Shown: piece by piece, positions 1 through 21,629 of the stretch
How positions within the stretch are numbered: the first letter of the stretch is position 1
How the letters are laid out: the number at the start of each line of letters is the position of its first letter
From: a virus
Lineage: Duplodnaviria > Caudoviricetes
Strand: one strand, 5' to 3'
Virus record (IMG/VR): IMGVR_UViG_3300021976_000015
Coordinates: 1-58,156 of that record
Length of the DNA: 58,156 nucleotides
The notes under the pieces: model-generated
Told to the model about the DNA's origin: nothing
The model's database searches: none
The model's input: the letters and a program-made list of their open reading frames with translations, nothing else
Position numbers and translations under genes: made by a program

Positions 1-222
1 GAACGCGACTACTTCCGAGTCAACCTCGACCCGGACGCCCACCGTGACGTACTGCCAGGCCTTCTCGTGGAATGCCCTGACGGTGATTCCGTCGTACGTG
101 TCGAAATCGCCTGGTGACGTGTCGTTGTCCTCGGACATGGTCCATTCCAGGATCACGCTCGGAACGTTGGTGTTTTCACTCTCGGTGTCAACGACCACTC
201 GGCCGTCCTCGGGCAGGAACAT
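1..222 (-). CDS. hypothetical acidic protein, 3' end beyond window edge (cargo downstream of hammerhead 1)
   Basis: ATG at 222 preceded by GGAGGTCACC. The frame MFLPEDGRVVVDTESENTNVPSVILEWTMSEDNDTSPGDFDTYDG... stays open to base 1. Confidence 0.75.
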   Translation of the reverse strand, partial: MFLPEDGRVVVDTESENTNVPSVILEWTMSEDNDTSPGDFDTYDGITVRAFHEKAWQYVTVGVRVEVDSEVVAF

Positions 223-268
223 GGTGACCTCCATGTAGCGGTGGTAAGGGGTCTGAGAGGCACGCTGT

Positions 269-324
269 GGACTCGTCAGCGGGTGACTGACACCCGGACA
301 CCCCCGGCACGGGGTGTTTCGTCC
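269..324 (-). ncRNA. type II hammerhead ribozyme HH1
   Basis: Minus strand reads GGAC GAAAC ACCCC-GUGCCG-GGGGU GUC^ CGGGUG-UCAGU-CACCCG CUGACGA GUCC. Catalytic core complete, stems I/II/III paired. Predicted cut between 297 and 296. Confidence 0.92.
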
Positions 325-851
325 TAGACGGAGTAGACGACATACCGACCGTCGGGAAGTTCAAACTTCTCGTGGTGGTGCGGTTGGTTGTAATCGAACA
401 GGTCCGAACGGAATTCGGTCTCATCTACCTCGCCGTCGTCACCAAGTGCACCCTGATCGATCATGAAATCGGCGAATGCGTCTTCCGAGTCGTACACGCC
501 CTGGTACTGGTTGTTGAGGAAGTCGGTGAACCCCTTCACCAGGTCAGGGTTACCGCTCGTGCCGAATTCGTACGCGGCCTTGAGGTACTCCGGCTTCCAC
601 GAAGACGGGGACCCGTAGTAGTCCTCACCAGGTAGCGGAATCAGGGCGTTCACGTAGTCCAGGATTTGGTCGCGGTCATCTCCCGCTTGCCATTCCTCTA
701 CCTCCGTGTCAGACCATTCCACTGAGTACTCATCGAACAACGCGGCAACGGCATTGATCCATGCCGTCACGGTGTCGTCGTCTGTGGTGTCCTCGGGGTG
801 TAGTACCCGGAAGCGGGTAAGCGCGTCCGGATGAACGACGGGATCGAACAT
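324..851 (-). CDS. ArdA-like anti-restriction (DNA-mimic) protein
   Basis: Very acidic 175 aa protein. The C-terminal YQGVYDSEDAFADFMID..G...D..EF..DLF...G..V pattern resembles the ArdA C-terminal domains. Strong SD. The TAG overlaps the GGAC of HH1. Confidence 0.6.
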   Translation of the reverse strand: MFDPVVHPDALTRFRVLHPEDTTDDDTVTAWINAVAALFDEYSVEWSDTEVEEWQAGDDRDQILDYVNALIPLPGEDYYGSPSSWKPEYLKAAYEFGTSGNPDLVKGFTDFLNNQYQGVYDSEDAFADFMIDQGALGDDGEVDETEFRSDLFDYNQPHHHEKFELPDGRYVVYSV

Positions 852-874
852 GGTTGACCTCCGTATAGAAATGG

Positions 875-930
875 GGACTCATCAGGGCACTCACCTAAGT
901 GCCGACGGGACATCAGGTCCCGTTTCGTCC
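875..930 (-). ncRNA. type II hammerhead ribozyme HH2
   Basis: GGAC GAAAC GGGAC-CUGAU-GUCCC GUC^ GGCAC-UUAGGUGA-GUGCC CUGAUGA GUCC. Cut 904/903. Confidence 0.92.
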
Positions 931-932
931 TG

Positions 933-1247
933 TCAGGAGTTGTCGTAATAGCGACCGACAACGACATGGTCGCTATCGGTGCCGCCGTACTCATCGCGGA
1001 CGTATCGAATCAGTACCGCTGAGAATGCGGAATCGGCGGAGTATCCGACCCACCCGGTCAGGGAGGGTTGCTGTTCGGTGACGCGTTCGAACTCGCCCAT
1101 GTCGTACGTCCAGTCGTCGTACCGGAAGAACGATGCGTCTTCCTGTCCACCATTGGCACTCAGGTAGGCGAACTCTTCGCGCTCTGTCTCCGAAAGGTCC
1201 GACCATGTCAAGACCTCACGCTCTACGTTGTCGCTTGTGATTGTCAT
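933..1247 (-). CDS. hypothetical acidic phage protein
   Basis: ATG at 1247 after GGAGGTCAACCCCG. MTITSDNVERE...GWVGYSADSAFSAVLIRY. The longer start in the ORF track runs through HH3 and is unlikely. Confidence 0.75.
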   Translation of the reverse strand: MTITSDNVEREVLTWSDLSETEREEFAYLSANGGQEDASFFRYDDWTYDMGEFERVTEQQPSLTGWVGYSADSAFSAVLIRYVRDEYGGTDSDHVVVGRYYDNS

Positions 1248-1269
1248 CGGGGTTGACCTCCAACTAGGG

Positions 1270-1322
1270 GGACTCATCAGGACCGGCATGACCGATCGAC
1301 GCGGCATGGCCGCGTTTCGTCC
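1270..1322 (-). ncRNA. type II hammerhead ribozyme HH3
   Basis: GGAC GAAAC GCGGC-CAU-GCCGC GUC^ GAUCGG-UCAUG-CCGGUC CUGAUGA GUCC, with one G-U pair in stem I. Cut 1298/1297. Confidence 0.92.
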
Positions 1323-1483
1323 TAGGTAGTTTTCATATCGGCGAAATGGTCGGCGAGGAAGAACCCGTCATGTGGAGTCCATCCACACCAACACTCGGCA
1401 GGGATACCGCGAGCGAGGGTGGCGGGATTGACCTCGTGAATGCCAGAGCACAACCCACAGTCGTGCTCTGTGGTCTCAGGCAT
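1322..1483 (-). CDS. small Cys/His-rich (possible Zn-binding) protein
   Basis: MPETTEHDCGLC...ECWCGW...DH. Overlaps the upstream stop. The TAG overlaps the GGAC of HH3. Confidence 0.6.
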   Translation of the reverse strand: MPETTEHDCGLCSGIHEVNPATLARGIPAECWCGWTPHDGFFLADHFADMKTT

Positions 1484-1724
1484 CCTTGCGCGCTCGGTGC
1501 TTGCCACCCTTGCTAGCCCTCTGAGTGCCACCCTCAGCCCTCTTGCGACTGGCGGGGGTACCCGACATCCGGTAGGCGAGGTAGGCAGCGTCGGTCTGGC
1601 CGCTAGGGGTGTCCACGTAGCGGATCGAACGGAACCAATCGAGCACGGACATGGCGAACCTTTCGGGATGGTGAGGCGGAGTGACGTTCGGGATGTTCGG
1701 GTCAGCGGTCAGCGTCGATCTCAT
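1476..1724 (-). CDS. hypothetical protein
   Basis: Fills the gap between neighbours with overlapping ends. Start uncertain. Confidence 0.45.
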   Translation of the reverse strand: MRSTLTADPNIPNVTPPHHPERFAMSVLDWFRSIRYVDTPSGQTDAAYLAYRMSGTPASRKRAEGGTQRASKGGKHRARKDA

Positions 1725-2121
1725 CGATATTGGTCAGGGTGATGTAGTACGAATAGCCCTGCCGCGTGACGGACACCAGGAACGTGTCGCCGTGCAGTTC
1801 CACAAGGTCACCATTCGCGACATTCGCGGTTGGGGTCGCCTTGTCAGGATCGGGTGAGTCCGAAAGCACCGAGGACATCTCGAATGCGTACGCGTAGGGA
1901 CCAGACACGATCGGTCCACCCTGGACACGTCGCGAGTAACCAGTGGAATCGATGTACCCCACCATGTGGCGCCCATAGGCACCCGCGACAGTGAGGTACA
2001 TGGTTCCCTCACCATCCCAATGCCCACGGTCGCGGGAAGTGTTGTCGTCCCAATAGCGGGACCGATTGAGAGGCACCCGCACACGGGTTGGGATGCGCAG
2101 TTCGGTAGTCGTCTCGGGCAT
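1702..2121 (-). CDS. hypothetical protein
   Basis: ATG at 2121 after GGAGGTCACC. MPETTTELRIPTRVRVP... Confidence 0.75.
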   Translation of the reverse strand: MPETTTELRIPTRVRVPLNRSRYWDDNTSRDRGHWDGEGTMYLTVAGAYGRHMVGYIDSTGYSRRVQGGPIVSGPYAYAFEMSSVLSDSPDPDKATPTANVANGDLVELHGDTFLVSVTRQGYSYYITLTNIDEIDADR

Positions 2122-2149
2122 GGTGACCTCCGGGTAGAGCTTCTGATTA

Positions 2150-2205
2150 GGACTCGTCAGCACGGCTACATACCGTGGACGGGGCGAGTGCACCCCGTTT
2201 CGTCC
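2150..2205 (-). ncRNA. type II hammerhead ribozyme HH4
   Basis: GGAC GAAAC GGGG-UGCACUCG-CCCC GUC^ CACGG-UAUGUAG-CCGUG CUGACGA GUCC. Cut 2178/2177. Confidence 0.9.
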
Positions 2206-2206
2206 G

Positions 2207-2659
2207 CTACTCGGTGTCGTCGTCGGTCTCTTCCTCCTCGTCGTCCTCTTCCTCCTCGTCTTCGTTCTCCAGGTCTTTGTAGTCCTGCTCTGCCTGGCCA
2301 AGAAGCTGCCCTGTCAGGTCATCGGCCGCGTAGAAGAGAACCGTTCCGACACCATCCGTGGTGAGTTCGGGTGGGTCTTCCATCTGACCTTCGTAGTGGT
2401 ACAGGGCCAGGTCTACGAAGACCTGCCAGCGCTCGTGTGTGGGAATCGGGACGGCACTGTCGGCGATTTCGGACGACTCGATTTCCTTGGTGTCGGTCCG
2501 CTCTGCCACTGCCGAAACCACGCGGTCACGGATGTCCAGAAGGAATTCCGCGCCGGGGGACGTCATACTCTCCGGGTACGACGCACCGTCAAGCATTCGG
2601 TAGAGGTCATCGGCGTCGTACTTGGAGATTTCAGCGGTGTTGTACATGGCGTAAGACAT
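2207..2659 (-). CDS. Ocr (T7 gp0.3)-like DNA-mimic anti-restriction protein
   Basis: 150 aa, extremely acidic. EIADSAVPIPTHERWQVF resembles the Ocr motif AADNAVPHYYADIFSV, and it has a poly-D/E tail as Ocr does. Confidence 0.55.
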   Translation of the reverse strand: MSYAMYNTAEISKYDADDLYRMLDGASYPESMTSPGAEFLLDIRDRVVSAVAERTDTKEIESSEIADSAVPIPTHERWQVFVDLALYHYEGQMEDPPELTTDGVGTVLFYAADDLTGQLLGQAEQDYKDLENEDEEEEDDEEEETDDDTE

Positions 2660-2683
2660 GGGGTTGTGACCTCCGTATAGGGG

Positions 2684-2737
2684 GGACTCATCAGGCCACG
2701 CGTTACGTGGCGACACCCGCGAAGGGGTGTTTCGTCC
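2684..2737 (-). ncRNA. type II hammerhead ribozyme HH5
   Basis: GGAC GAAAC ACCC-CUUCGC-GGGU GUC^ GCCACG-UAACG-CGUGGC CUGAUGA GUCC. Cut 2712/2711. Confidence 0.92.
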
Positions 2738-2739
2738 TG

Positions 2740-3012
2740 TCAGTAGTAGTTATCCGGCGGGTAGTGGCCAGGTCCGTAGCAGAGGGACGCGGACAATCCG
2801 TGCTCGCACGTCGGGTAGAGGTACTCGGACAGTTCCTGGTGATCCGGGTAGAGATCCGACACCGAATCGATGACGTGACCGGGACGATCGTTCAGGAACG
2901 CGATGGCCATCGTGTCCGCGTTCGGACCTTCGAAGATGACCTTGTACGACCCCTCACTCAGGGGTGAGGTGACGGACAGGATGACGGGCGTGTGCGTGGT
3001 GGTATCGGGCAT
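2740..3012 (-). CDS. hypothetical protein with C-terminal CEHG...C..P.H motif
   Basis: ATG at 3012 after GGAGGTCACACC. Ends YPTCEHGLSASLCYGPGHYPPD. Confidence 0.75.
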   Translation of the reverse strand: MPDTTTHTPVILSVTSPLSEGSYKVIFEGPNADTMAIAFLNDRPGHVIDSVSDLYPDHQELSEYLYPTCEHGLSASLCYGPGHYPPDNYY

Positions 3013-3053
3013 GGTGTGACCTCCCATAGAGCGGACTGGTGAAGCGGACTTGT

Positions 3054-3105
3054 GGACTCGTCAGGGTTGGAGATACCAACCGACGCGCCTAAGCGCGTTT
3101 CGTCC
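3054..3105 (-). ncRNA. type II hammerhead ribozyme HH6
   Basis: GGAC GAAAC GCGC-UUAG-GCGC GUC^ GGUUGG-UAUCU-CCAACC CUGACGA GUCC. Cut 3082/3081. Confidence 0.92.
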
Positions 3106-3302
3106 TAGGCAGGGATGACATCCATGTAATTGGGTGCCACCTTCAGGGTCCGTTTGGACCGATCCATCATCACGTGCACGTACTTGGTTCCGAGCTTGAC
3201 GACGACGCCAAACCGGTCACCTCGCATCCATGCATCGAGACCGGGGTGCAACTCCACCCTTTCCCCCACGGTGTACTGGTTTGTCTTTTTGCGCGTGGTC
3301 AT
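3105..3302 (-). CDS. small basic SH3-like beta-barrel protein
   Basis: MTTRKKTNQYTVGERVELHP...GVVVKLGTKYVHVMMD. The TAG overlaps the GGAC of HH6. The ATGA overlaps the upstream gene. Confidence 0.65.
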   Translation of the reverse strand: MTTRKKTNQYTVGERVELHPGLDAWMRGDRFGVVVKLGTKYVHVMMDRSKRTLKVAPNYMDVIPA

Positions 3303-3562
3303 TTCAAATCCCTTTCTTTGGGTGTGTGGCCGATGAGAACGTCCGGGCAGTACCCGAGTGCGGTGTGGAAGACGAAGCGCAAGCCGTGCTCCCGGTCCCA
3401 CACGTACCCCTGGAGAACACTCCAGTCCGCCATCTCGTTCGGTGTGGTCTCTACCAGGCCAGAGCAGATCTCCTGAGAGACAGCCGCGCTCGGTGAGGTA
3501 GGCGCGTTGTAATCGGTATGGGGCACGGTCACCACAAGGGCCACCGCGATCAGGGCATGCAA
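3299..3562 (-). CDS. small secreted/membrane protein
   Basis: TTG start after GGAAGG. Hydrophobic N-terminus ALIAVALVV. Confidence 0.5.
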   Translation of the reverse strand: MHALIAVALVVTVPHTDYNAPTSPSAAVSQEICSGLVETTPNEMADWSVLQGYVWDREHGLRFVFHTALGYCPDVLIGHTPKERDLK

Positions 3563-3633
3563 GGGGTACCTTCCGACTAGGGGGCAGGGGCTTCAGGGCC
3601 GCTACGGCCATCTGAGGGGGTTGTGAGGTGAAC

Positions 3634-3825
3634 TCAGGCGAGACGAGGAGTTGGGTTGCACGCGGGCACTCGGGTCTCGCTGTAGAAGTTCGTGAGAGTG
3701 AGCCATCCACTCGCCGAGATGTTGTCCGCCACGTGGGTGGCCAGCTTCTCATCGGTGTACGTCTCGGTGACGTCCCGACCCTCGTCGTCGCGGTAGTCGA
3801 CAAAGAACGTGGTGTATTCGGGCAT
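3634..3825 (-). CDS. hypothetical protein
   Basis: ATG at 3825 after GGAGGTCACC. MPEYTTFFVDYRDDEGRDVTE... Confidence 0.7.
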   Translation of the reverse strand: MPEYTTFFVDYRDDEGRDVTETYTDEKLATHVADNISASGWLTLTNFYSETRVPACNPTPRLA

Positions 3826-3856
3826 GGTGACCTCCCATAGAGCGGACTGGTAAGAC

Positions 3857-3910
3857 GGACTCATCAGGACACCCCATAGGTGCCGACACCCCAGGTGGGG
3901 TGTTTCGTCC
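3857..3910 (-). ncRNA. type II hammerhead ribozyme HH7
   Basis: GGAC GAAAC ACCCC-ACCU-GGGGU GUC^ GGCACC-UAUGG-GGUGUC CUGAUGA GUCC. Cut 3885/3884. The upstream TAA abuts GGAC. Confidence 0.92.
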
Positions 3911-4279
3911 TTACTCCTCGGCGTCGGACAGTTCGTACTCGGCTTCCGAGAGAATGTCCGCGAATGGTGTGAGAGCGACGTGATCCGCATTCGCCTCGTC
4001 ATCGGGGTCTTCCACCTCATCGGAGGCGTAGTAGGAGAGGAATCCGGCCGCGTCACGAAGCGCGCGATCGTGATCCACGTACGGGAGGTTGAGGGTGTGG
4101 TCTTTGTCGCCCACCCAGGACACGATCGGCTCACCCTCGGAACGGGTCAGGGTGACGCGGTAGGCCGCGTAGTGGTCACTCCAGTAGCCATCGGTGACGT
4201 GCCGGTCAAGGAACACACCGAGAATCAGGCCATCGTCCAGGTGGGCGATACGGCCATCGCGGGTGGTGGTGACGTTCAT
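3911..4279 (-). CDS. hypothetical acidic protein
   Basis: ATG at 4279 after GGAGGTCAACACC. MNVTTTRDGRIAHLDD..., with an acidic C-terminus. Confidence 0.75.
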   Translation of the reverse strand: MNVTTTRDGRIAHLDDGLILGVFLDRHVTDGYWSDHYAAYRVTLTRSEGEPIVSWVGDKDHTLNLPYVDHDRALRDAAGFLSYYASDEVEDPDDEANADHVALTPFADILSEAEYELSDAEE

Positions 4280-4301
4280 GGTGTTGACCTCCAGGTAGAA
4301 C

Positions 4302-4357
4302 GGACTCATCAGGCCGCGTATGACGCGACGACGCGGGAATGCACCCGCGTTTCGTCC
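4302..4357 (-). ncRNA. type II hammerhead ribozyme HH8
   Basis: GGAC GAAAC GCGGG-UGCAUU-CCCGC GUC^ GUCGCG-UCAUA-CGCGGC CUGAUGA GUCC. Cut 4330/4329. Confidence 0.92.
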
Positions 4358-4367
4358 TAGGGGTAGA

Positions 4368-4541
4368 TCAGACCGGAACGTTGGTAGAGATGAGGGAAGG
4401 GGATGCCGCGCAACGAAGTGCACGAGCAAGTACCCGTTGTGCCTTCTCGGCGGTGAGGAACCAACCGGAGTAGACGGTGCGTCCACCAACGCAGTCGGTC
4501 CAGCGGACGTAGTACGCGCTCTTGGGGCGGGTTGCGTTCAT
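4368..4541 (-). CDS. small hypothetical protein (57 aa), first gene of the ribozyme operon
   Basis: GGAGGTCACCGCACC-ATG. MNATRPKSAYYVRWTDCVGGRTVYSGWFLTAEKAQRVL... Below the ORF-track length cutoff. Confidence 0.65.
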   Translation of the reverse strand: MNATRPKSAYYVRWTDCVGGRTVYSGWFLTAEKAQRVLARALRCAASPSLISTNVPV

Positions 4542-4587
4542 GGTGCGGTGACCTCCAACTAACCCCCGACGTCTGTGTCGGGGAAAG

Positions 4588-4635
4588 TGCCCGTGTGCGG
4601 ATTCGAACCGCTACAAGCCAACTTCACTCACGGGC
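4588..4635 (-). ncRNA. tRNA-like mini-structure (acceptor stem plus T-arm only)
   Basis: GCCCGUG-(17 nt)-GCGG UUCGAAU CCGC-A-CACGGGC-A: a 7-bp acceptor-like stem and a canonical T-loop, with no D or anticodon arm. Confidence 0.6.
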
Positions 4636-5030
4636 ATGACCTACTTACCAGTGCAAGGGATGCTGCCCTTTCGCCTCGCTAGGAATGCAGGTCATCACGG
4701 CAAGGTCGCACTGTTAGGGATTCGGCTACGCGCTTGGTCATGCCTGCCTACGTAAGAGAGCCGTTCTCACCACTTCCTAGTGGCCATGTTGTTGGATACG
4801 CCGCGAGTAAGTCACCAGGGCTTAGGACTGACAGTCCATCGTGAGCCGAGCTGGGTGGCCGCGCGTATGAGGTAAGCAAGTCAGGGGTCTAGGCATTTTT
4901 CGGCGTTAGCACCCGTCGCGATCGATCACCGCCACTCGCGTGGCCTTACGGGGGTTCCGGCGCTTGACTTGCTCTGTAGTTGTGGCCCCCATGTTCGGGA
5001 GCGGGTGGTGCAAGACCCAAGCTACAGCAC
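4636..5030 (-). ncRNA. candidate large structured non-coding RNA / leader
   Basis: No convincing ORF. Nested helices at 4649-56/4706-13, 4674-79/4700-05, 4633-41/4736-44 and 4875-83/4965-73, plus a GNRA hairpin at 4931-4944. Confidence 0.45.
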
Positions 5031-5450
5031 TAGCGCTGTGTAAGAAGGCATATGACATCACACGTTCGGGTGAATGTAACCAGGACACAAGGGACGCGAA
5101 CGGACATCTTGTGCGTGGAGTGGCAGGTGGAGAGGAAGGGAACACGGCTTCTCAGCTATGGCCACAGCTACCCAAAGACACCCCCTAAACGATCACTCCA
5201 AGCGATCACTCAGAGGCCCATACGTGCAGGTCACGGTGTGTTCTGCACCTTGGTTTTCGGGACGGTAGGCAGTGCACCCCTAGATTCCGCGACCAAGACA
5301 CCCCATCTCTACCTGGTTGGAAGGGGGGTAGGCGGGTTAGAACGTCGCGACCGGGGTCCCCTTTCCACACCAGTGGAAGTAGAGGAGATACCAGGTAGCC
5401 GGTAGACCCCAGTTGGATTTTCGCGACGTGGGGTTCCCCATCCGTAGTAC

Positions 5451-5545
5451 AGGGGAGAGAGGGAGAGAGGAGAGGGGGAGGGAAGAGACAGGGTAGGTAG
5501 GGGGTAGAGGTAGAGGGTAGGTAGAACGAAGGTTTGTAGGTAGAT
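5451..5545 (+). repeat. polypurine tract and GGTAG repeats
   Basis: 38 consecutive purines (5451-5488) followed by GGTAGGTAGGGGGTAGAGGTAGAGGGTAGGTAG. Confidence 0.8.
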
Positions 5546-5658
5546 TGGCTACGTATGAAGGATGGTTAGGTGTTTGCAGGGGTGCTTAGAATTGGATAGG
5601 GCTCTGACCTGCACAAAGACAAGGGCTTTGGTTTTAGGGTGTAACCAGGAGGGCGAAA

Positions 5659-6792
5659 ATGGCATTTTCAGCAATGGAAATTTTAGACCAAACAATGACC
5701 GATATGCAGGATTCTTTTGTCCAGAGTGGACAACTTTCGCAACAGTCCAGGGTGATCAACAAGCATGGGACGGCACGGATCACCAGCGGGAAGAAACCCA
5801 AGACGGTAAGTAAGGCCATCCACCCGTGGAGCAAGATCGAAGCCGTCTACGTGGAAGGTCTTCCAGAGACCCACAAAGATGGAAGAACGATCCTCAACTA
5901 CCCGAGTCACCAGGCGGTAGCGGACTTGTTCGCGATCAGTGTCGCGACAGTCCGGCAGAGGGCAGCACGAGAACAGTGGACAACCAGGCGAGAACAACAT
6001 CAGGCACAACTTGCCGCGCAGAGGCGACAGGAACGTCATCGGGAACTTGCTCAGTACGCCAGTGACATCGATGAGAAAGCCGTACATCTCAGTCGTACGG
6101 GGCTTTCCATCGTTCAGGCACGCATCTTGGAGCTTGCCGAGAAAGCCAAGGATCGCGAGATCTGGAAGGAAGACAAGCAACTCTGTGAAGCAAGCGGTAC
6201 ACGGTTCATCCGACCCGAACCCAAGCCGGTTGACGCGAGGGAACTTGACCAACTTGCCGCAGCCGCAACCAAGTGGCATGCGTTGGGTAGACAGGGTTTA
6301 GGCGATGACGTCACGAAGCTTCAGATAACCGGTCCAGACGGTGGACCCGTCCAAACCATTCATGCGCACATGGTCAAGGAAGACCCAGAACGCTTGTCAA
6401 AGGTCCTCGATGCCCTGAAGAGAAGCAACGTCCTCACTGCCCTCATGGGTATGGAGGAACCGATAGAAGCCGAACTTGTGGACGAGATCCCTTACACAGC
6501 GGCAATCGAAGTCATTCCCGACCCATACGAGCACATGACCCAAGAGAACGGGTACGACATCCAATCGGCAGATGCGGGGGTAGGTAGAGGAGAAGATCAG
6601 GGGGTAGGTAGAGGGGATGTCATTCTAGAAACCCCCTCAGATCAACCGAGAGCAATCAAGCACGTCATCCCACCCATTGACCCCAACCCCCTGGGGTTAA
6701 GTCCTCAGAATCAAGCTGAGAGGGATGTGGGGGTAGATACGGGGGTTAGAAGGGTGACCCCAACAAGACGCACGAGGAAGACGCGGGAGTAA
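5659..6792 (+). CDS. terS: terminase small subunit (putative)
   Basis: N-terminal HTH-like segment (SHQAVADLFAISVATVRQRAAREQW), a helical middle, and the typical TerS LQITGPDGGPVQT motif. Start uncertain. Confidence 0.65.
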   Translation: MAFSAMEILDQTMTDMQDSFVQSGQLSQQSRVINKHGTARITSGKKPKTVSKAIHPWSKIEAVYVEGLPETHKDGRTILNYPSHQAVADLFAISVATVRQRAAREQWTTRREQHQAQLAAQRRQERHRELAQYASDIDEKAVHLSRTGLSIVQARILELAEKAKDREIWKEDKQLCEASGTRFIRPEPKPVDARELDQLAAAATKWHALGRQGLGDDVTKLQITGPDGGPVQTIHAHMVKEDPERLSKVLDALKRSNVLTALMGMEEPIEAELVDEIPYTAAIEVIPDPYEHMTQENGYDIQSADAGVGRGEDQGVGRGDVILETPSDQPRAIKHVIPPIDPNPLGLSPQNQAERDVGVDTGVRRVTPTRRTRKTRE

Positions 6793-18312: not shown

Positions 18313-20682
18313 ATGGCCTTCTGGTCCGACCTGTTCACCAAGGCAGGTAAGCCACACGTTCAGTTCGACGACCCTGTTTCCACTTCGGCCGTTGGCCACG
18401 TTGTTGGCAATGTCAGTACCGGCATCACAGGGTTGGGTATCGCCGACGACTTGTCGCGAGCGGTCAACACCCAAGAACGAGTCATCTACGTCTACCGGTG
18501 TGTGGACGCCATCGCATCTCGCGCCGCCACTATCCCCATCGTCGTCAAGAAGGACGGCAAGGGTGACGGGATGGAGCATGAAGACCCCGTCGTTCGCCTG
18601 CTGACCAAGCGGCCGAACACCTACGAGACGGCGACCCAGTTCAAGTACCGGTTGTCCAGCCAGCTCCTGTTGAGCACAAAGGGTGTCTTCGTTGAGGTCA
18701 TTCGCTCTGAGGCTGGGAAGGTCGTCGAGCTTCACCTTCTCCCCTCGGACAAAGTGGAGCCAATCCCAGATCGCCGTCGTTACGTCCAGGGGTTCCGCGT
18801 CTATGACCCTGAAAAGGGTTACGTGGATCTTCCTCCGGATCGTGTGGTGTGGATTCGTAGCAAGCCGCATCCTACGAATGTTTTCGCGCAACTAACCCCA
18901 CTCGTCGCAGCACACCTCGCGGCGGATACCGACTACATGGCGCGTCAGTTCAACCGCAACTTCCTACGCAACGATGGTCGTCCAGGAATGATCGTTGCCG
19001 TCGCAGGCGCGATGAACAACGAAGACCGTGACGCGTTGAGTGCCATGTTCAGCGGTGGGTACGCCCAAGCCGGAGTCACCAGGGTCATTGAGGGTGACCG
19101 GATCTCGGCAGTCGATCTCTCGGGAACGCCGCGTGACATTCAGTGGCAGGACGCATTGGAAGGAACCAAGCAAGACATCTTGCTTGCGTTCGGTGTTCCG
19201 GAAAGCCAGCTCGGTAACGCATCCGGAAGAACCTACGACAACGCCGACGCCGAAGAGGAGATGTTCTACAAGTCGACGATGGTCGATCACTGCAACTCGA
19301 TCGCCAACGCCTTCGACGTCCTCACTACTGGCGGTACCGAAGACGACCTGATCGTTGCCTACGACTGGAGCAAGATCGACGTACTCCAGCGTCAGGAACG
19401 AGCGCGTCACCAGAAGGCCTTCGAGGAGTTCAAGGAAGGCGCGATCACGATCGACGAGTACCGCGAGCTGACCGGTAAGGATGTCTTCGACGTCCCCGGC
19501 ACTCGCGTCCTATGGGTGAAGAACACCGGAGCAGTCGGTATCGGTCACAACTTCCTGGACACCGCCGAGGCAGCGCTTCTTGTCCCGGCAGGACAGAACG
19601 CCTTTGCCCTTCCTCCGGTAGAGGAAGAGAACCCGGCGATCACGCAGACCGAGTCCGATCGAGCGGTCAACGACGGAGTGTCCACGGCGGACAGGGACAC
19701 CGACGATCCCAACGCCGCCGCGAACGCCACCTTGCAGTCCAGTAGGCCCGCCGTGGGCGGTCGATCTGCCGATCGTGCACTGAGGTTGGTCAAGGAACTT
19801 CACAGGAATCCCGCGACTGGTGTCTTCGAGGAGACCAAGGGCGAGCTTCCTGGAGGGCAGCACCCAAAAGAGCTAGAGACAGAGACCAAGGCCGCGCGCA
19901 CGGTTCGATCAACCGTTCAACGTGAGGTCCGTTCTGCTGTCTCTACCTTGGTGCGTGGGTACAGCAGGATGGTCGAGCTTCGGTTCAAGGGCAACGCGAT
20001 CAGGAAGAACACCAGGTACTGGTCACCAGCGGGTACAGCAGCCCTGAACATCAACAAGATGGTCAACAAGTCGGTGGCGATGGCGAAGTTCGGCCAGGAC
20101 ATTCTTGATCTGGTGGAACCCATCGCGATCGATGCCGCCGAACGGTTGTCCTTGCGGTGGGGGAAGAACACCAACCGCGCGCAGTGGATCAACGACATCA
20201 AGCGAATCGTCGTGAACCAGATCGTGGACCAGGCCACGGTGTCCTTCGGTCGATACGTGGATTCTCTTCGCGACCAGATCACCGCCGTGGACATGGATCA
20301 GAGCGCGACCAGGGACGACATCAACAAGGCGATCTCGTCCTACACCTCCTCGAAAGAGAAGGCGTGGGTCCCCCAGTTCGCCGAATACGTCGCTTTCACC
20401 GTAGTTGAGGGTGCTGAAGCCGTCGCGGCACAGCATTTGGACAACTTGATGAAGGTGTGGAACTCCATGGATGACGATTCGGTGCGTCCCAGTCACTGGG
20501 TGATCGATGGTGAGGCCGTTGGAGTCCACGAAAAGTTCAAGGTGGGTGTGTTCCGGCTCGCTTTCCCGCGTGATCCGTCCGCTCCGTCGGTGGAAACCAT
20601 GGGATGCCGTTGTTTCCTGACCTATAGGCGCCCCAAAACCAACGAAAGTGCCGGGGTACCACCAAAAAGGCGGAGCGCGTGA
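18313..20682 (+). CDS. HK97-type portal protein fused to a MuF-like head morphogenesis domain
   Basis: Portal motifs VYRCVDAIASRAA, FLRNDGRPG and ILLAFGVP. C-terminal KVWNSMDDDSVRPSH...FPRDP...GCRC is MuF-like. Confidence 0.9.
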   Translation: MAFWSDLFTKAGKPHVQFDDPVSTSAVGHVVGNVSTGITGLGIADDLSRAVNTQERVIYVYRCVDAIASRAATIPIVVKKDGKGDGMEHEDPVVRLLTKRPNTYETATQFKYRLSSQLLLSTKGVFVEVIRSEAGKVVELHLLPSDKVEPIPDRRRYVQGFRVYDPEKGYVDLPPDRVVWIRSKPHPTNVFAQLTPLVAAHLAADTDYMARQFNRNFLRNDGRPGMIVAVAGAMNNEDRDALSAMFSGGYAQAGVTRVIEGDRISAVDLSGTPRDIQWQDALEGTKQDILLAFGVPESQLGNASGRTYDNADAEEEMFYKSTMVDHCNSIANAFDVLTTGGTEDDLIVAYDWSKIDVLQRQERARHQKAFEEFKEGAITIDEYRELTGKDVFDVPGTRVLWVKNTGAVGIGHNFLDTAEAALLVPAGQNAFALPPVEEENPAITQTESDRAVNDGVSTADRDTDDPNAAANATLQSSRPAVGGRSADRALRLVKELHRNPATGVFEETKGELPGGQHPKELETETKAARTVRSTVQREVRSAVSTLVRGYSRMVELRFKGNAIRKNTRYWSPAGTAALNINKMVNKSVAMAKFGQDILDLVEPIAIDAAERLSLRWGKNTNRAQWINDIKRIVVNQIVDQATVSFGRYVDSLRDQITAVDMDQSATRDDINKAISSYTSSKEKAWVPQFAEYVAFTVVEGAEAVAAQHLDNLMKVWNSMDDDSVRPSHWVIDGEAVGVHEKFKVGVFRLAFPRDPSAPSVETMGCRCFLTYRRPKTNESAGVPPKRRSA

Positions 20683-21629
20683 TGGATTTGACCGAACTGA
20701 GGCACCGATTGACCACGTTGGCCGCGTCGGTGTCCTTCGATGGCAAAAGTGAGGCCCCGACCAGCTCCTCACCGCGTGATCACACCTTCGAACTGCTCGA
20801 TCTTGTCCATGCAGCCGTATTCGAGGGTGTCGGGATCAACGAAATGGCGTCCAAGGCCATGTCAGACCCCAACTACGCGTACTTACGACCCCAAGTGAGG
20901 GAGTTCATGGGCTTCACGAGCCCTTTCAAGGCCCCTGAGAGCCTCGTAGAGCCCTCAGACCAGGCCAAGTCCGTCCTCCACACCTTCACCGGGGCCATGA
21001 TCGCCCTGGTGCCCTCAGAGCGAGACATCGAGCGCCTGAAGAAGCACATCACGGAAGACCCAGACCAGCTCCACATGACGTTGTACTTCCTCGGCGAGGC
21101 AAACGAGTGGGACGACAACGCGCAGAAGGCGGTTGGGGTCCATATCGCAACGTTGAAGAGCATGTTCGCCGCTCAGAAGACGCGCGTTGCAGGCAGAGCC
21201 ATTTTCAACCCCACCGGAGAGACCCCGGCGGACGTGTTGATCCTCAATTCGCCCACCTTGATGGCCGTGAAGCAGGCGGTAACGGGTGCATTGGCGCGAT
21301 GTGGGTACCTGAACAAGCTGCCAGAGCAACACGAACCCTGGATTCCGCATTTGACCCTCGGGTACAGGGTCGAACAACCAGATCTTCCTGACGAGATCTT
21401 CACTGAGCCGATGCGTTTCGATCGAGTGCGGGTGTCTTTCGCGAGAGAACACATCGACATCCCTCTTGTAGGACATCCGGAGCCCGCTAGTTTCAATTCG
21501 TACGCGAAATTTGCAGATGTTGTGGGCGATGAAGAAGCCCAACGTGTCGTACTGGATACCAAAGCAGGTCTGGACGTTCCGCTGAGCTTCTACCGAGCAG
21601 CAGAGAAAGCGCGCAGAGGTAATCGATGA
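20679..21629 (+). CDS. 2H phosphoesterase (2'-5' RNA ligase / LigT-like) domain protein
   Basis: Two HxT motifs: LHMTLYFLG and WIPHLTLGY. Confidence 0.8.
   Translation: MMDLTELRHRLTTLAASVSFDGKSEAPTSSSPRDHTFELLDLVHAAVFEGVGINEMASKAMSDPNYAYLRPQVREFMGFTSPFKAPESLVEPSDQAKSVLHTFTGAMIALVPSERDIERLKKHITEDPDQLHMTLYFLGEANEWDDNAQKAVGVHIATLKSMFAAQKTRVAGRAIFNPTGETPADVLILNSPTLMAVKQAVTGALARCGYLNKLPEQHEPWIPHLTLGYRVEQPDLPDEIFTEPMRFDRVRVSFAREHIDIPLVGHPEPASFNSYAKFADVVGDEEAQRVVLDTKAGLDVPLSFYRAAEKARRGNR

Follow-up and report, generated by a model that had tools for sequence, protein, structure and literature searches.

Gene block and hammerhead motifs

The window, i.e., the whole stretch of 58,156 nucleotides that was analyzed, belongs to a siphovirus-like phage from soil that is related to Gordonia phages, with a terminase 51% identical to theirs; judging from these relationships, the host lineage is probably actinobacterial. 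Between positions 269 and 4357, the minus strand contains eight type II hammerhead motifs, all of which possess a complete catalytic core (CUGANGA, GAAA and the GUC cleavage site) and three helices. They are set into a leftward block of small, mostly acidic genes, which are non-conserved orphans of unknown function.

All features of the block lie on the minus strand. Its first gene (4368–4541; 57 aa, basic, with the SD sequence GGAGG), for which no Pfam or PHROG family was found, is located upstream of HH8 (4302–4357, predicted cut after 4330). Cuts at HH8 and HH7 (3857–3910, after 3885) would release an RNA of 445 nt (3885–4329) with one ORF (3911–4279; 122 aa, pI 4.23). The cassette between HH7 and HH6 (3054–3105, cut after 3082) measures 803 nt (3082–3884) and holds ORFs at 3634–3825 (63 aa), 3299–3562 (87 aa, a weak call) and 3105–3302 (65 aa, PHROG 5546). 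It is followed by a cassette of 370 nt (2712–3081) up to HH5 (2684–2737, cut after 2712) with a 90-aa ORF (2740–3012), and by one of 534 nt (2178–2711) up to HH4 (2150–2205, cut after 2178), the ORF of which (2207–2659; 150 aa, pI 4.05, PHROG 4239) has an acidic tail. HH4 and HH3 (1270–1322, cut after 1298) delimit 880 nt (1298–2177) with ORFs at 1702–2121 (139 aa), 1476–1652 (58 aa) and 1322–1507 (61 aa), and a 394-nt cassette (904–1297) with an ORF at 933–1247 (104 aa, PHROG 1845) extends to HH2 (875–930), whose cut after 904 was placed by eye from the alignment. Between HH2 and HH1 (269–324, cut after 297), 607 nt (297–903) carry a 175-aa orphan ORF (324–851, pI 4.05). The RNA 3' of HH1 (1–296) contains an ORF that starts at 234 and leaves the contig end, and the array may therefore extend past the record.

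Each motif takes up the entire interval from the stop codon of one small gene to the leader with the SD sequence of the next. The stop codon overlaps the GGAC strand of stem II or lies at most 3 nt from it at all eight motifs, and GUCC is in every case followed downstream by GGAGG and a start codon. At HH8, the TAG stop of the upstream gene shares the first G of GGAC, and the TAA stop at HH7 directly adjoins it. A similar placement was observed for 272 type II hammerheads from IMG/VR loci, which were compared to 666 random positions on the same strands: in 229 of the 272, stem II was preceded at −3 to +15 nt by the end of an ORF of at least 40 codons (random, 86/666), 105 of these 229 ends being located at −1 or 0, and an SD sequence with the start of an ORF of at least 40 codons followed within 90 nt past stem II in 238/272 (random, 170/666).

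The pattern GGACGAAAC-N(10-40)-CTGANGAGTCC matched eight times, always on the minus strand, and none of 100 dinucleotide shuffles contained a match. A relaxed scan of both strands, which allowed any stem II of at least 3 bp, recovered the identical eight motifs and no type I- or III-like arrangement. In addition, a covariance model built from the eight copies, which match it by construction, and run with filters off identified no further copy within the 58 kb; the next best candidate scored 11 bits (E 0.47). In an Rfam search, no copy reached the gathering score (37 for RF02276). Six copies matched RF02276 below this threshold, at 23.1–31.5 bits (HH1, 23.1; HH3, 27.3; HH5, 27.9; HH6, 23.6; HH7, 31.5; HH8, 26.2), HH2 matched only the type III model (18.2 bits), and HH4 was absent from the matches at E ≤ 10.

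Some modules within the array are closely similar. HH5 shares 82% identity with HH7 across 55 nt, and the leader following HH6 shares 91% with that following HH7 across 35 nt; these modules of hammerhead and leader would fit growth of the array by duplication.

Variation of the helices

As the preliminary description had stated, stem II is GGAC/GUCC in all eight copies; it consists of exactly 4 bp without extension. In the alignment, changes on both sides occur at 6/6 pairs of stem I and 5/7 pairs of stem III, and the four pairs of stem II are invariant, so that 11 of the 17 pairs over the three helices show compensatory changes among the eight copies. Paired cells amounted to 99.3%, compared to 73% in shuffles (0/500 as high) and 30–49% with the partners slid. 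Variation affects about 43% of cells in stems I and III and none in stem II. The difference between 0/24 changed cells in stem II and 38/88 in those pairs of stems I and III that vary corresponds to about 1e-6 if cells are treated as independent and shared descent is ignored.

GUCC/GGAC is a common stem II, as had been cautioned earlier, and occurs in at least 119 IMG/VR stretches. A uniform stem II was found in 18 of 52 arrays, and 50 of 117 adjacent pairs had theirs in common, in a sample that is biased to GGAC/GUCC and thereby favors uniformity. However, the 11 other arrays with at least five copies all had a mixed stem II, indicating that the uniformity of all eight copies is unusual; high-GC arrays were likewise mixed. 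The loop I/3'-flank pseudoknot typical of type II hammerheads gave no signal in the GGAC/GUCC subclass, in which complementarity equaled that of the permuted control (152 copies). Nearest-neighbor folding, which ignores tertiary contacts and co-transcriptional folding, assigned the native stem II a probability of only 0.0008–0.155 in a context of ±150 nt.

Cleavage of the transcript and fate of the fragments

We consider it likely that a leftward polycistronic transcript is cut co-transcriptionally into mRNAs of one to three genes, both ends of which lie in hairpins. On the nascent RNA, each ribozyme would fold from the local hairpins of stems I and III and the 4-bp stem II and cut 3' of its own GUC. 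The mRNA 5' end would be a 5'-OH on the nucleotide with which the stem I hairpin begins, and the 3' end a 2',3'-cyclic phosphate one nucleotide beyond the stem III helix. With the ends tucked into hairpins, stability and translation would likely be set separately for each message, uncoupled from its neighbors. In Bacillus, the 5'-OH left by the glmS ribozyme attracts RNase J1, suggesting that any protection of the 5' end would rest on the hairpin and not on the hydroxyl. What the sequence shows are the motifs, their covariation and their exact position between cistrons; in vivo self-cutting, one continuous long transcript and an influence on stability are inferred. Within positions 1–4541, neither a sigma-70-like promoter nor a minus-strand terminator-like site was found, which is weak evidence, and none of the RNA runs contained this phage. 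Support comes from related elements: prophage hammerhead clusters were reported to be cut at all sites upon in vitro transcription of ~2-kb fragments and in E. coli, and processing to gene-length mRNAs was proposed (PMC3088659). Three type II hammerheads near phage-like genes of Desulfovibrio vulgaris are described as cleaving in vivo and in vitro (PMC8782182), and reviews portray phage hammerheads as flanking small non-conserved ORFs (PMC6155905, PMC6765202). Simple processing, however, leaves the constancy of stem II across all eight copies, next to variable stems I and III, without an explanation.

The preliminary description had proposed that a cut cassette rebuilds a nicked hammerhead via its own GUCC and GGAC, with the gene as loop II, and that the ends are joined by the reverse hammerhead reaction or a host RtcB-type ligase, resulting in functional exonuclease-resistant circular mRNAs or reordered cassettes. 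The structural premises stood up to analysis. GUCC and GGAC are placed in 7/7 cassettes as in the proposed order (5'-OH, stem I, CUGANGA, GUCC, leader with SD, ORF(s), stop, GGAC, GAAAC, stem III, GUC>p), they can re-pair in every cassette, which nearest-neighbor folding does not forbid, and the suggested junctions (297 to 903, 2178 to 2711) match the computed cleavage sites. Closure into RNA circles thus appears geometrically possible in these models. The predicted probability of end pairing was 0.45, 0.94, 0.91, 0.35 and 0.24 in five linear cassettes, but 4e-5 and 0.008 in the other two, and shuffled interiors reached the native value in 14/50 cases, so that the cassettes are not distinctive. 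The invariance of stem II described above would also favor functional circles; across the class, however, compatibility is not preserved. Other phage arrays show covariation of stem II inside each ribozyme but often incompatibility between neighbors; every cassette was pairable in only 5 of 22 unique arrays with at least three copies, and adjacent pairs were fully pairable hardly more often (48/84) than non-adjacent ones (183/372). Hammerhead stems accept huge insertions, as in the discontinuous Clec2 hammerhead (PMC6155905), and some natural hammerheads are reported to be about one third ligated at internal equilibrium (PMC2553840). Once cleaved, though, the ends would be held by only 4 bp, and ribosomes at the stop adjoining GGAC, or starting about 24 nt past GUCC, would cover both strands. 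A closed circle would still fold a cleavage-competent ribozyme (modeled stem II probability up to 0.84 and 0.62), and a switch-off alternative fold as in viroids was not evident. The sTRSV hammerhead has the same stem II as these copies. Its internal equilibrium is described as lying greatly toward the cleaved state (PMC2553840). Neither the window nor 10 other array contigs contain an RtcB gene, and Perreault et al., who weighed circular or spliced products of the prophage clusters, state that none was detected (data not shown; PMC3088659). The proposal of functional circular mRNAs therefore found no support, and we regard it as very improbable. Circles might instead be a minor, functionless by-product, if host RtcB occasionally joined the close 5'-OH and 2',3'-cyclic phosphate ends and the rebuilt hammerhead re-cut them. 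The hammerhead mechanism provides this end chemistry, nearest-neighbor folding permits the pairing of the ends, and RtcB is common in bacteria, a control search being positive in 10/14 reference genomes, including Corynebacterium glutamicum. However, the statement by Perreault et al. weighs here as well, and such by-products, which would require a host with RtcB, are rather unlikely.

The ribozymes might also act at the DNA level as module borders, with the 9-nt and 11-nt blocks (GGACGAAAC, CTGANGAGTCC) and the leaders serving as homologies through which cassettes could be duplicated, lost or exchanged. Exchange via such short homologies would yield a uniform stem II as a by-product, and the paralogous hammerhead-leader modules, the non-conserved orphans between the ribozymes and the differing cassette number and spacing in related arrays of other contigs (L079 vs. 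L052; L019/L101 vs. L106) are in line with it. On the other hand, contigs of four DNA runs from two studies displayed the same order and no joints at ribozyme boundaries, and conversion tracts long enough to homogenize stem II should also homogenize stems I and III, in which almost every pair differs. We thus judge a role as module borders improbable. It is very unlikely that the cuts mainly insulate transcription, the severed RNA blocking Rho or a tracking defense nuclease from the polymerase or downstream genes, rather than affecting mRNA stability. A cut at every gene-block boundary and the type II topology, which leaves no single-stranded 5' tail, would suit this role, but it is pure conjecture to which no specific sequence feature points.

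Relation to known hammerhead systems

Gene-flanking clustered hammerheads in prophages are an already known type of element, described in 2011, to which the present array belongs. The clusters described by Perreault et al. are likewise type II, with several ribozymes bordering one gene or a short run of variable phage genes, most of them unknown, and, as here, mRNA processing was proposed and circular or spliced products were considered. The arrangements reported as tested there (PMC3088659) were triple; the present one comprises eight copies within 4.1 kb and differs further in belonging to a subclass without the pseudoknot signal, in its uniform stem II and in its probably actinobacterial host lineage. 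In Desulfovibrio vulgaris (Olzog et al., 2021; PMC8782182), the hammerheads are likewise type II and situated by phage-like genes, with two of the ribozymes close to each other; by that account, they comprise three copies at two loci and no array, and their in vivo cleavage was demonstrated by capture of 2',3'-cyclic phosphate and 5'-OH ends.

RF02276 (Hammerhead_II) agrees with the motifs in core, helix order and cleavage triplet. However, the scores are below its threshold, and two copies are not recognized as type II at all. In its consensus, stem II is shorter and precedes a conserved 3' tail, which the motifs here lack.

In retrozymes and viroid-like RNAs, tandem hammerheads similarly free a unit with 5'-OH and 2',3'-cyclic phosphate ends, the halves of which rebuild one ribozyme. 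These are type I or III and belong to non-coding RNAs of 150–1000 nt that replicate or retrotranspose and for which circles are documented, whereas the cassettes described here, for which circles are hypothetical, are protein-coding and belong to a dsDNA phage. Many of those hammerheads are described as weak as monomers, so that the circle is not readily re-cut (PMC7761336, PMC6155905). A very large loop is tolerated in the 3' UTRs of mammalian Clec2 genes, where 150–1500 nt interrupt a helix; according to the review, the insertion there is into helix I, and the ribozyme, which is of type III, acts in cleavage, not ligation (PMC6155905).

The hammerhead array and its gene context

Eight type II hammerhead motifs occur on the minus strand between positions 269 and 4357 of the window, from HH8 (4302..4357) down to HH1 (269..324). 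Each reads, 5' to 3', GGAC, GAAAC, a stem III hairpin, GUC with the cut, a stem I hairpin, CUGA(U/C)GA and GUCC. The core by which hammerheads were recognized (CUGANGA, GAAA and a cleavage triplet of the form NUH) was complete in 8/8 copies, as CTGA[T/C]GA, GAAA and GTC. A strict pattern matched eight times in the window and not once in 100 shuffles, and a relaxed scan of both strands with stem II left free recovered these eight again, with no arrangement of type I/III. With filters off, a covariance model built from the eight copies, which match it by construction, identified nothing further in the record, the next best hit scoring 11 bits. Cuts were computed after positions 4330, 3885, 3082, 2712, 2178, 1298, 904 and 297, in agreement with the coordinates and junction examples of the preliminary description.

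Stem I comprises 6 bp and stem III 6-7 bp, while stem II is an open helix of exactly 4 bp for which no extension was found in the native form of the eight copies. Standard pairs filled 99.3% of the 136 alignment cells, compared to 73% in shuffles and 30-49% with slid partners, and the covariation score was 0.744, compared to 0.197 for shuffles, none of 500 of which reached the observed value, and at most 0.17 for slid partners. Both sides changed in 6/6 pairs of stem I and 5/7 pairs of stem III, thus in 11/17 pairs when stem II is included, confirming that stems I and III are self-contained hairpins, as had been described, and that they are variable. The reported invariance of stem II was likewise borne out: 0/4 pairs vary across the copies, and hence this helix provides no covariation evidence within the window.

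None of the eight copies matched Rfam at the gathering score (37 bits for RF02276). At a loose threshold, six copies matched Hammerhead_II (RF02276) at 23.1-31.5 bits and one reached 18.2 bits with the type III model; another copy was unlisted. The low RF02276 scores reflect the consensus tail and stem II of the model and not a defective core. As all copies fall below the threshold, the array would escape routine annotation.

The genes of the block are transcribed leftward, and the ribozymes delimit seven units of 370-880 nt with one or three ORFs each, referred to here as cassettes (e.g., HH2>1, the RNA between two successive cuts at 297..903). In 8/8 copies, the upstream ORF ends in a stop codon that overlaps GGAC or falls within 3 nt of it, in four of them as a TAG sharing its G with GGAC, and GUCC is followed by a short leader, GGAGG and ATG. 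No promoter-like or minus-strand terminator-like sites were detected within the block, which would fit a single long transcript without proving it. A stretch of about 1.1 kb (4542-5658) in which no ORF is convincing separates the block from a rightward gene at 5659-6792. It has a terminator-like hairpin of 16 bp on the minus strand (5216-5182), a GC hairpin immediately before the Shine-Dalgarno (SD) sequence of the first gene, and no Rfam family at E<=10; it is possibly a divergent promoter or regulatory region.

The products of the block are mostly acidic (pI <=5.31 in 10/13 ORFs). Ten cassette proteins gave no Pfam family, and three of them matched PHROGs families of unknown function, with no other PHROGs match. 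For two cassette proteins no relative was found in IMG/VR, tblastn of the 13 array ORFs against 244 comparison loci returned one weak match, and an exact 36-nt stretch of the array was absent from the metagenome contigs searched. The 175-aa orphan protein at 327-851 (minus strand) is very acidic (pI 4.05), and word-index and full HMMER searches returned only the protein itself and one repetitive 722-aa protein. The nearest clusters in an ESM Atlas structure search were ArdA antirestriction proteins (TM 0.44 and 0.40, below the bar), and the single-sequence model of the protein (pLDDT 50.5) is too poor for a structure search; at these values no ArdA identity is claimed. In Agrobacterium and Legionella, ardA adjoins hammerheads, according to an earlier survey (PMC3088659). 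The exact 175-aa protein also appears on two recorded contigs, of which the longer measures 94,964 nt, and a more complete assembly of the phage (about 95 kb) thus exists, which could reveal whether the array extends past the left end of the window.

Contigs from four DNA runs of two studies carry the same sequence, and none shows a joint at a ribozyme boundary. A search for sequencing runs matching window positions 1-5000 listed none of RNA. Loose ends were restricted to the low-complexity acidic-tail region at 2211-2270, where a GAG/GAC-rich coding repeat draws contigs of unrelated organisms in 4/4 DNA runs. A rearrangement at this position was rejected, as both the loose ends and the extra depth are spurious and originate from these other sequences.

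The record, which is linear and estimated to be 57% complete, stems from soil metagenomes and further encodes a terminase, portal, protease, major capsid protein, tape measure protein, primase and DnaB-like helicase. Its terminase shares 49-52% identity with the terminases of Gordonia phages (83-93 kb), and the virus is a tailed phage, probably of an actinobacterium. In the Gordonia phages ChisanaKitsune, GMA6 and Gray, its closest relatives in culture, pattern search identified a hammerhead in 0/3, and their scores against RF02276 (11.8-16.2 bits) were no better than those of control genomes.

Placement and stem II of type II hammerheads in other loci

To place the array within its class, two samples were drawn, each of at least 119 IMG/VR stretches: the first with the exact GGAC...GUCC form and the second with a pattern in which stem II was free. 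The GGAC...GUCC form was also found in 119 stretches of genome contigs from bacteria and archaea, with many from Actinomycetota. The first 119 loci listed hold 217 type II hammerheads, 155 with GGAC/GTCC and 62 with other compensated 4-bp stems, and the 117 listed loci unique to the second pattern add 75 hammerheads, 0 of them with GGAC/GTCC. Across the other loci listed, stem II covaries (GGAC/GTCC, GGTC/GACC, GAGC/GCTC and others). Two genome contigs named as Phycicoccus jejuensis NRRL B-24460 (locus L270) and Streptomyces iakyrus NRRL ISP-5482 (L286) share 6,654 nt at 100% identity and 59% GC, including a uniform array of three hammerheads, so that the two assemblies either have a mobile element in common or were cross-contaminated.

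Among the matches listed (loci L009-L244), 272 hammerheads lie far enough from the locus ends for their placement to be counted. An ORF of at least 40 codons ends -3 to +15 nt before stem II in 229/272 of these listed copies, compared to 86/666 random positions, and in 105 of the 229 the stop lies at -1 or 0 nt of stem II. An SD sequence and the start of an ORF of at least 40 codons follow within 90 nt after stem II in 238/272 listed copies, compared to 170/666 random positions, with the next start codon at a median of 24 nt among the matches listed. Compared to random positions, these counts make intercistronic placement a property of the class, and the arrangement suggests a ribozyme that is integral to the junction of translation stop and start. 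With the stop abutting stem II, terminating ribosomes would seem to sit on this helix, and cleavage may therefore be in competition with ribosome traffic.

The GGAC/GUCC copies form a distinct subclass. Among the IMG/VR matches listed, stem-loop I measures 17-18 nt in 143/152 copies, and an A follows GUCC in 120/152, compared to 2/8 copies in the window. The tertiary contact of type II hammerheads, in most cases a pseudoknot between loop I and the nucleotides just 3' of stem II (Perreault et al. 2011), was sought in this form. Complementarity of at least 5 bp occurred in 8% of the 152 listed GGAC/GTCC copies and in 8% of permuted controls, and loop I of these listed copies showed no excess complementarity to either flank. 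In contrast, 27% of 135 listed copies with another stem II had such complementarity, compared to 12% after permutation, which corresponds to the published pseudoknot signal. By eye, no convincing loop I pseudoknot pairing was found in the eight window copies.

Fate of the released cassettes

It is probable that one leftward transcript of the block cleaves itself co-transcriptionally into mRNAs of one to three genes. A 6-bp hairpin would start right at each new 5' end, and each new 3' end, carrying a cyclic phosphate, would lie one nucleotide past a 6-7-bp helix, so that both ends would be buried without any ligation, a consequence peculiar to the type II topology. Such buried ends could provide much of a circle's benefit against end-dependent nucleases.

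The preliminary description went further and proposed that each cassette could rebuild a hammerhead from its two ends and may close into a circular mRNA. The geometry of this proposal is right, since the halves of the two flanking hammerheads can reassemble a hybrid stem II in 7/7 cassettes, but the circles are unsupported. The nearest-neighbour model, a weak judge in that it gives even the native stem II a P of only 0.0008-0.155 in a context of +/-150 nt, allowed hybrid pairing in 5/7 cassettes. The P of the hybrid stem in the linear cassette and the closed circle, respectively, was 0.45 and 0.061 for HH8>7, 4e-5 and 9e-6 for HH7>6, 0.008 and about 0.005 for HH6>5, 0.94 and 0.84 for HH5>4, 0.91 and 0.62 for HH4>3, 0.35 and 0.23 for HH3>2, and 0.24 and 0.045 for HH2>1. 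An extra 2 bp on the hybrid stem was seen by eye for HH4>HH3 only. The native P was reached in 14/50 interior dinucleotide shuffles, indicating that the cassettes are not specially built for end pairing.

If cassettes needed a hybrid stem II, neighbouring hammerheads should keep compatible strands, which is often not the case. Among the matches listed, 18/52 arrays of at least two copies were uniform in stem II; 50/117 listed adjacent pairs shared the stem and 69/117 could form a hybrid as long as the shorter native one. The array figures lean towards uniformity, since the first sample had been selected by GGAC/GUCC. Of 23 listed arrays with at least three copies, 22 remained after one duplicate was dropped, 4 of them uniform and 5 with every cassette pairable. 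In the listed arrays, adjacent pairs were fully pairable in 48/84 cases, compared to 183/372 other ordered pairs from the same array. One listed array of nine copies in a 65% GC contig has six kinds of stem II, and a listed four-copy array alternates GGUC and GGAC; high GC does not account for a uniform stem II. With neighbours so often incompatible, selection maintains pairing within the stem II of each ribozyme and not compatibility across neighbours, and the compared sequences indicate that end-to-end reassembly is not a conserved requirement of phage hammerhead arrays.

Stem II identity in 8/8 copies is nevertheless unusual, as 0/11 other listed arrays of at least five copies are uniform, and recent duplication can hardly explain it by itself, given the differences among the copies in 38/88 variable cells of stems I and III. 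This uniformity, the compatibility of all seven cassettes and the pairing allowed in five of them by the folding model would be consistent with a circular or closed message. It is very improbable, however, that selection keeps stem II identical because released cassettes use it to form a hybrid hammerhead (in which the 3' half of one ribozyme joins with the 5' half of its neighbour) and then close. We attach just as little credence to the closure that this would entail, whether by the reverse reaction or by host RtcB to yield a translatable circular mRNA, or otherwise as a message closed end-to-end by non-covalent pairing. Viroid circles are protected by an alternative fold. In the crude folding model, the circular form produced no general switch-off of stem II across the seven cassettes, so that a closed circle, still presenting a foldable ribozyme with no sign of such a fold, would probably cut itself again. 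Once cut, the two ends are held by 4 bp alone, and both strands of stem II would be covered by ribosomes that terminate at the codon abutting GGAC or initiate about 24 nt downstream of GUCC. Functional circular mRNAs appear highly improbable for the cassettes, and occasional non-functional circles are unlikely. That the repeats serve an exchange of cassettes at the DNA level would agree with the paralogous modules of hammerhead and leader within the array, but the order is identical in the four DNA runs, and we regard this explanation as quite improbable. These readings and self-cleavage into linear mRNAs are not all mutually exclusive.

A search for RtcB (PF01139) identified none in the window and none in ten further virus records with arrays, which are all fragments. 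Enzymes of the 2H phosphoesterase/LigT-like type have 2',3'-cyclic phosphate ends as their substrates. The portal gene is immediately followed by a 316-aa ORF (20679-21626, plus strand) whose product belongs to the 2H phosphoesterase/2'-5' RNA ligase superfamily (LigT/ThpR-like): this protein scores 36.1 bits against PF13563 (cut-off 27), has both HxT motifs, can be aligned to the Thermus 2'-5' RNA ligase structure PDB 1IUH and has a syntenic counterpart in Gordonia phage ChisanaKitsune, annotated there as 'RNA ligase'. As a partner of the array this protein was dropped, since the family occurs in 0/10 of the other array-bearing contigs and the gene is present in Gordonia relatives in which no hammerhead was identified.

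Relation to known hammerhead systems

Phage hammerhead arrays between genes are an already known kind, and the present one stands out by size, by the uniformity of stem II and by escaping the Rfam threshold. The first natural type II hammerheads were described by Perreault et al. 2011 (PMC3088659); in that report, three tandem arrangements were cleaved at all sites in vitro and one in E. coli, and it was proposed that long phage transcripts are processed to mRNAs of gene length. The authors add that cleavage and ligation in succession could give spliced or circular products, neither of which was detected (data not shown). According to later work, prokaryotic hammerheads are tied to phages and flank small non-conserved ORFs without a settled role (PMC6155905, PMC6765202), and type II hammerheads near phage-like genes of Desulfovibrio vulgaris cleave in vivo (PMC8782182). 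A literature search for phage hammerheads and circular RNA, with most subscription journals outside its coverage, found no report of such circles.

The role of bacterial and phage hammerheads is treated as an open question in reviews, for which the array is a clean example in that each of its eight copies takes up one boundary between genes. Counts across the class, i.e., the abutting stop, the start spacing of 24 nt and the subclass without the pseudoknot, sharpen this question. The array comparison makes natural circular mRNAs of phages less likely a priori, and the uniform array of the window is the best place to look for them. Like the units of retrozymes and viroid-like RNAs, its cassettes are flanked by two hammerheads whose halves can be reassembled; those units, however, are non-coding and replicate or retrotranspose, whereas the cassettes carry one to three ORFs with SD sequences and reside in a dsDNA phage.
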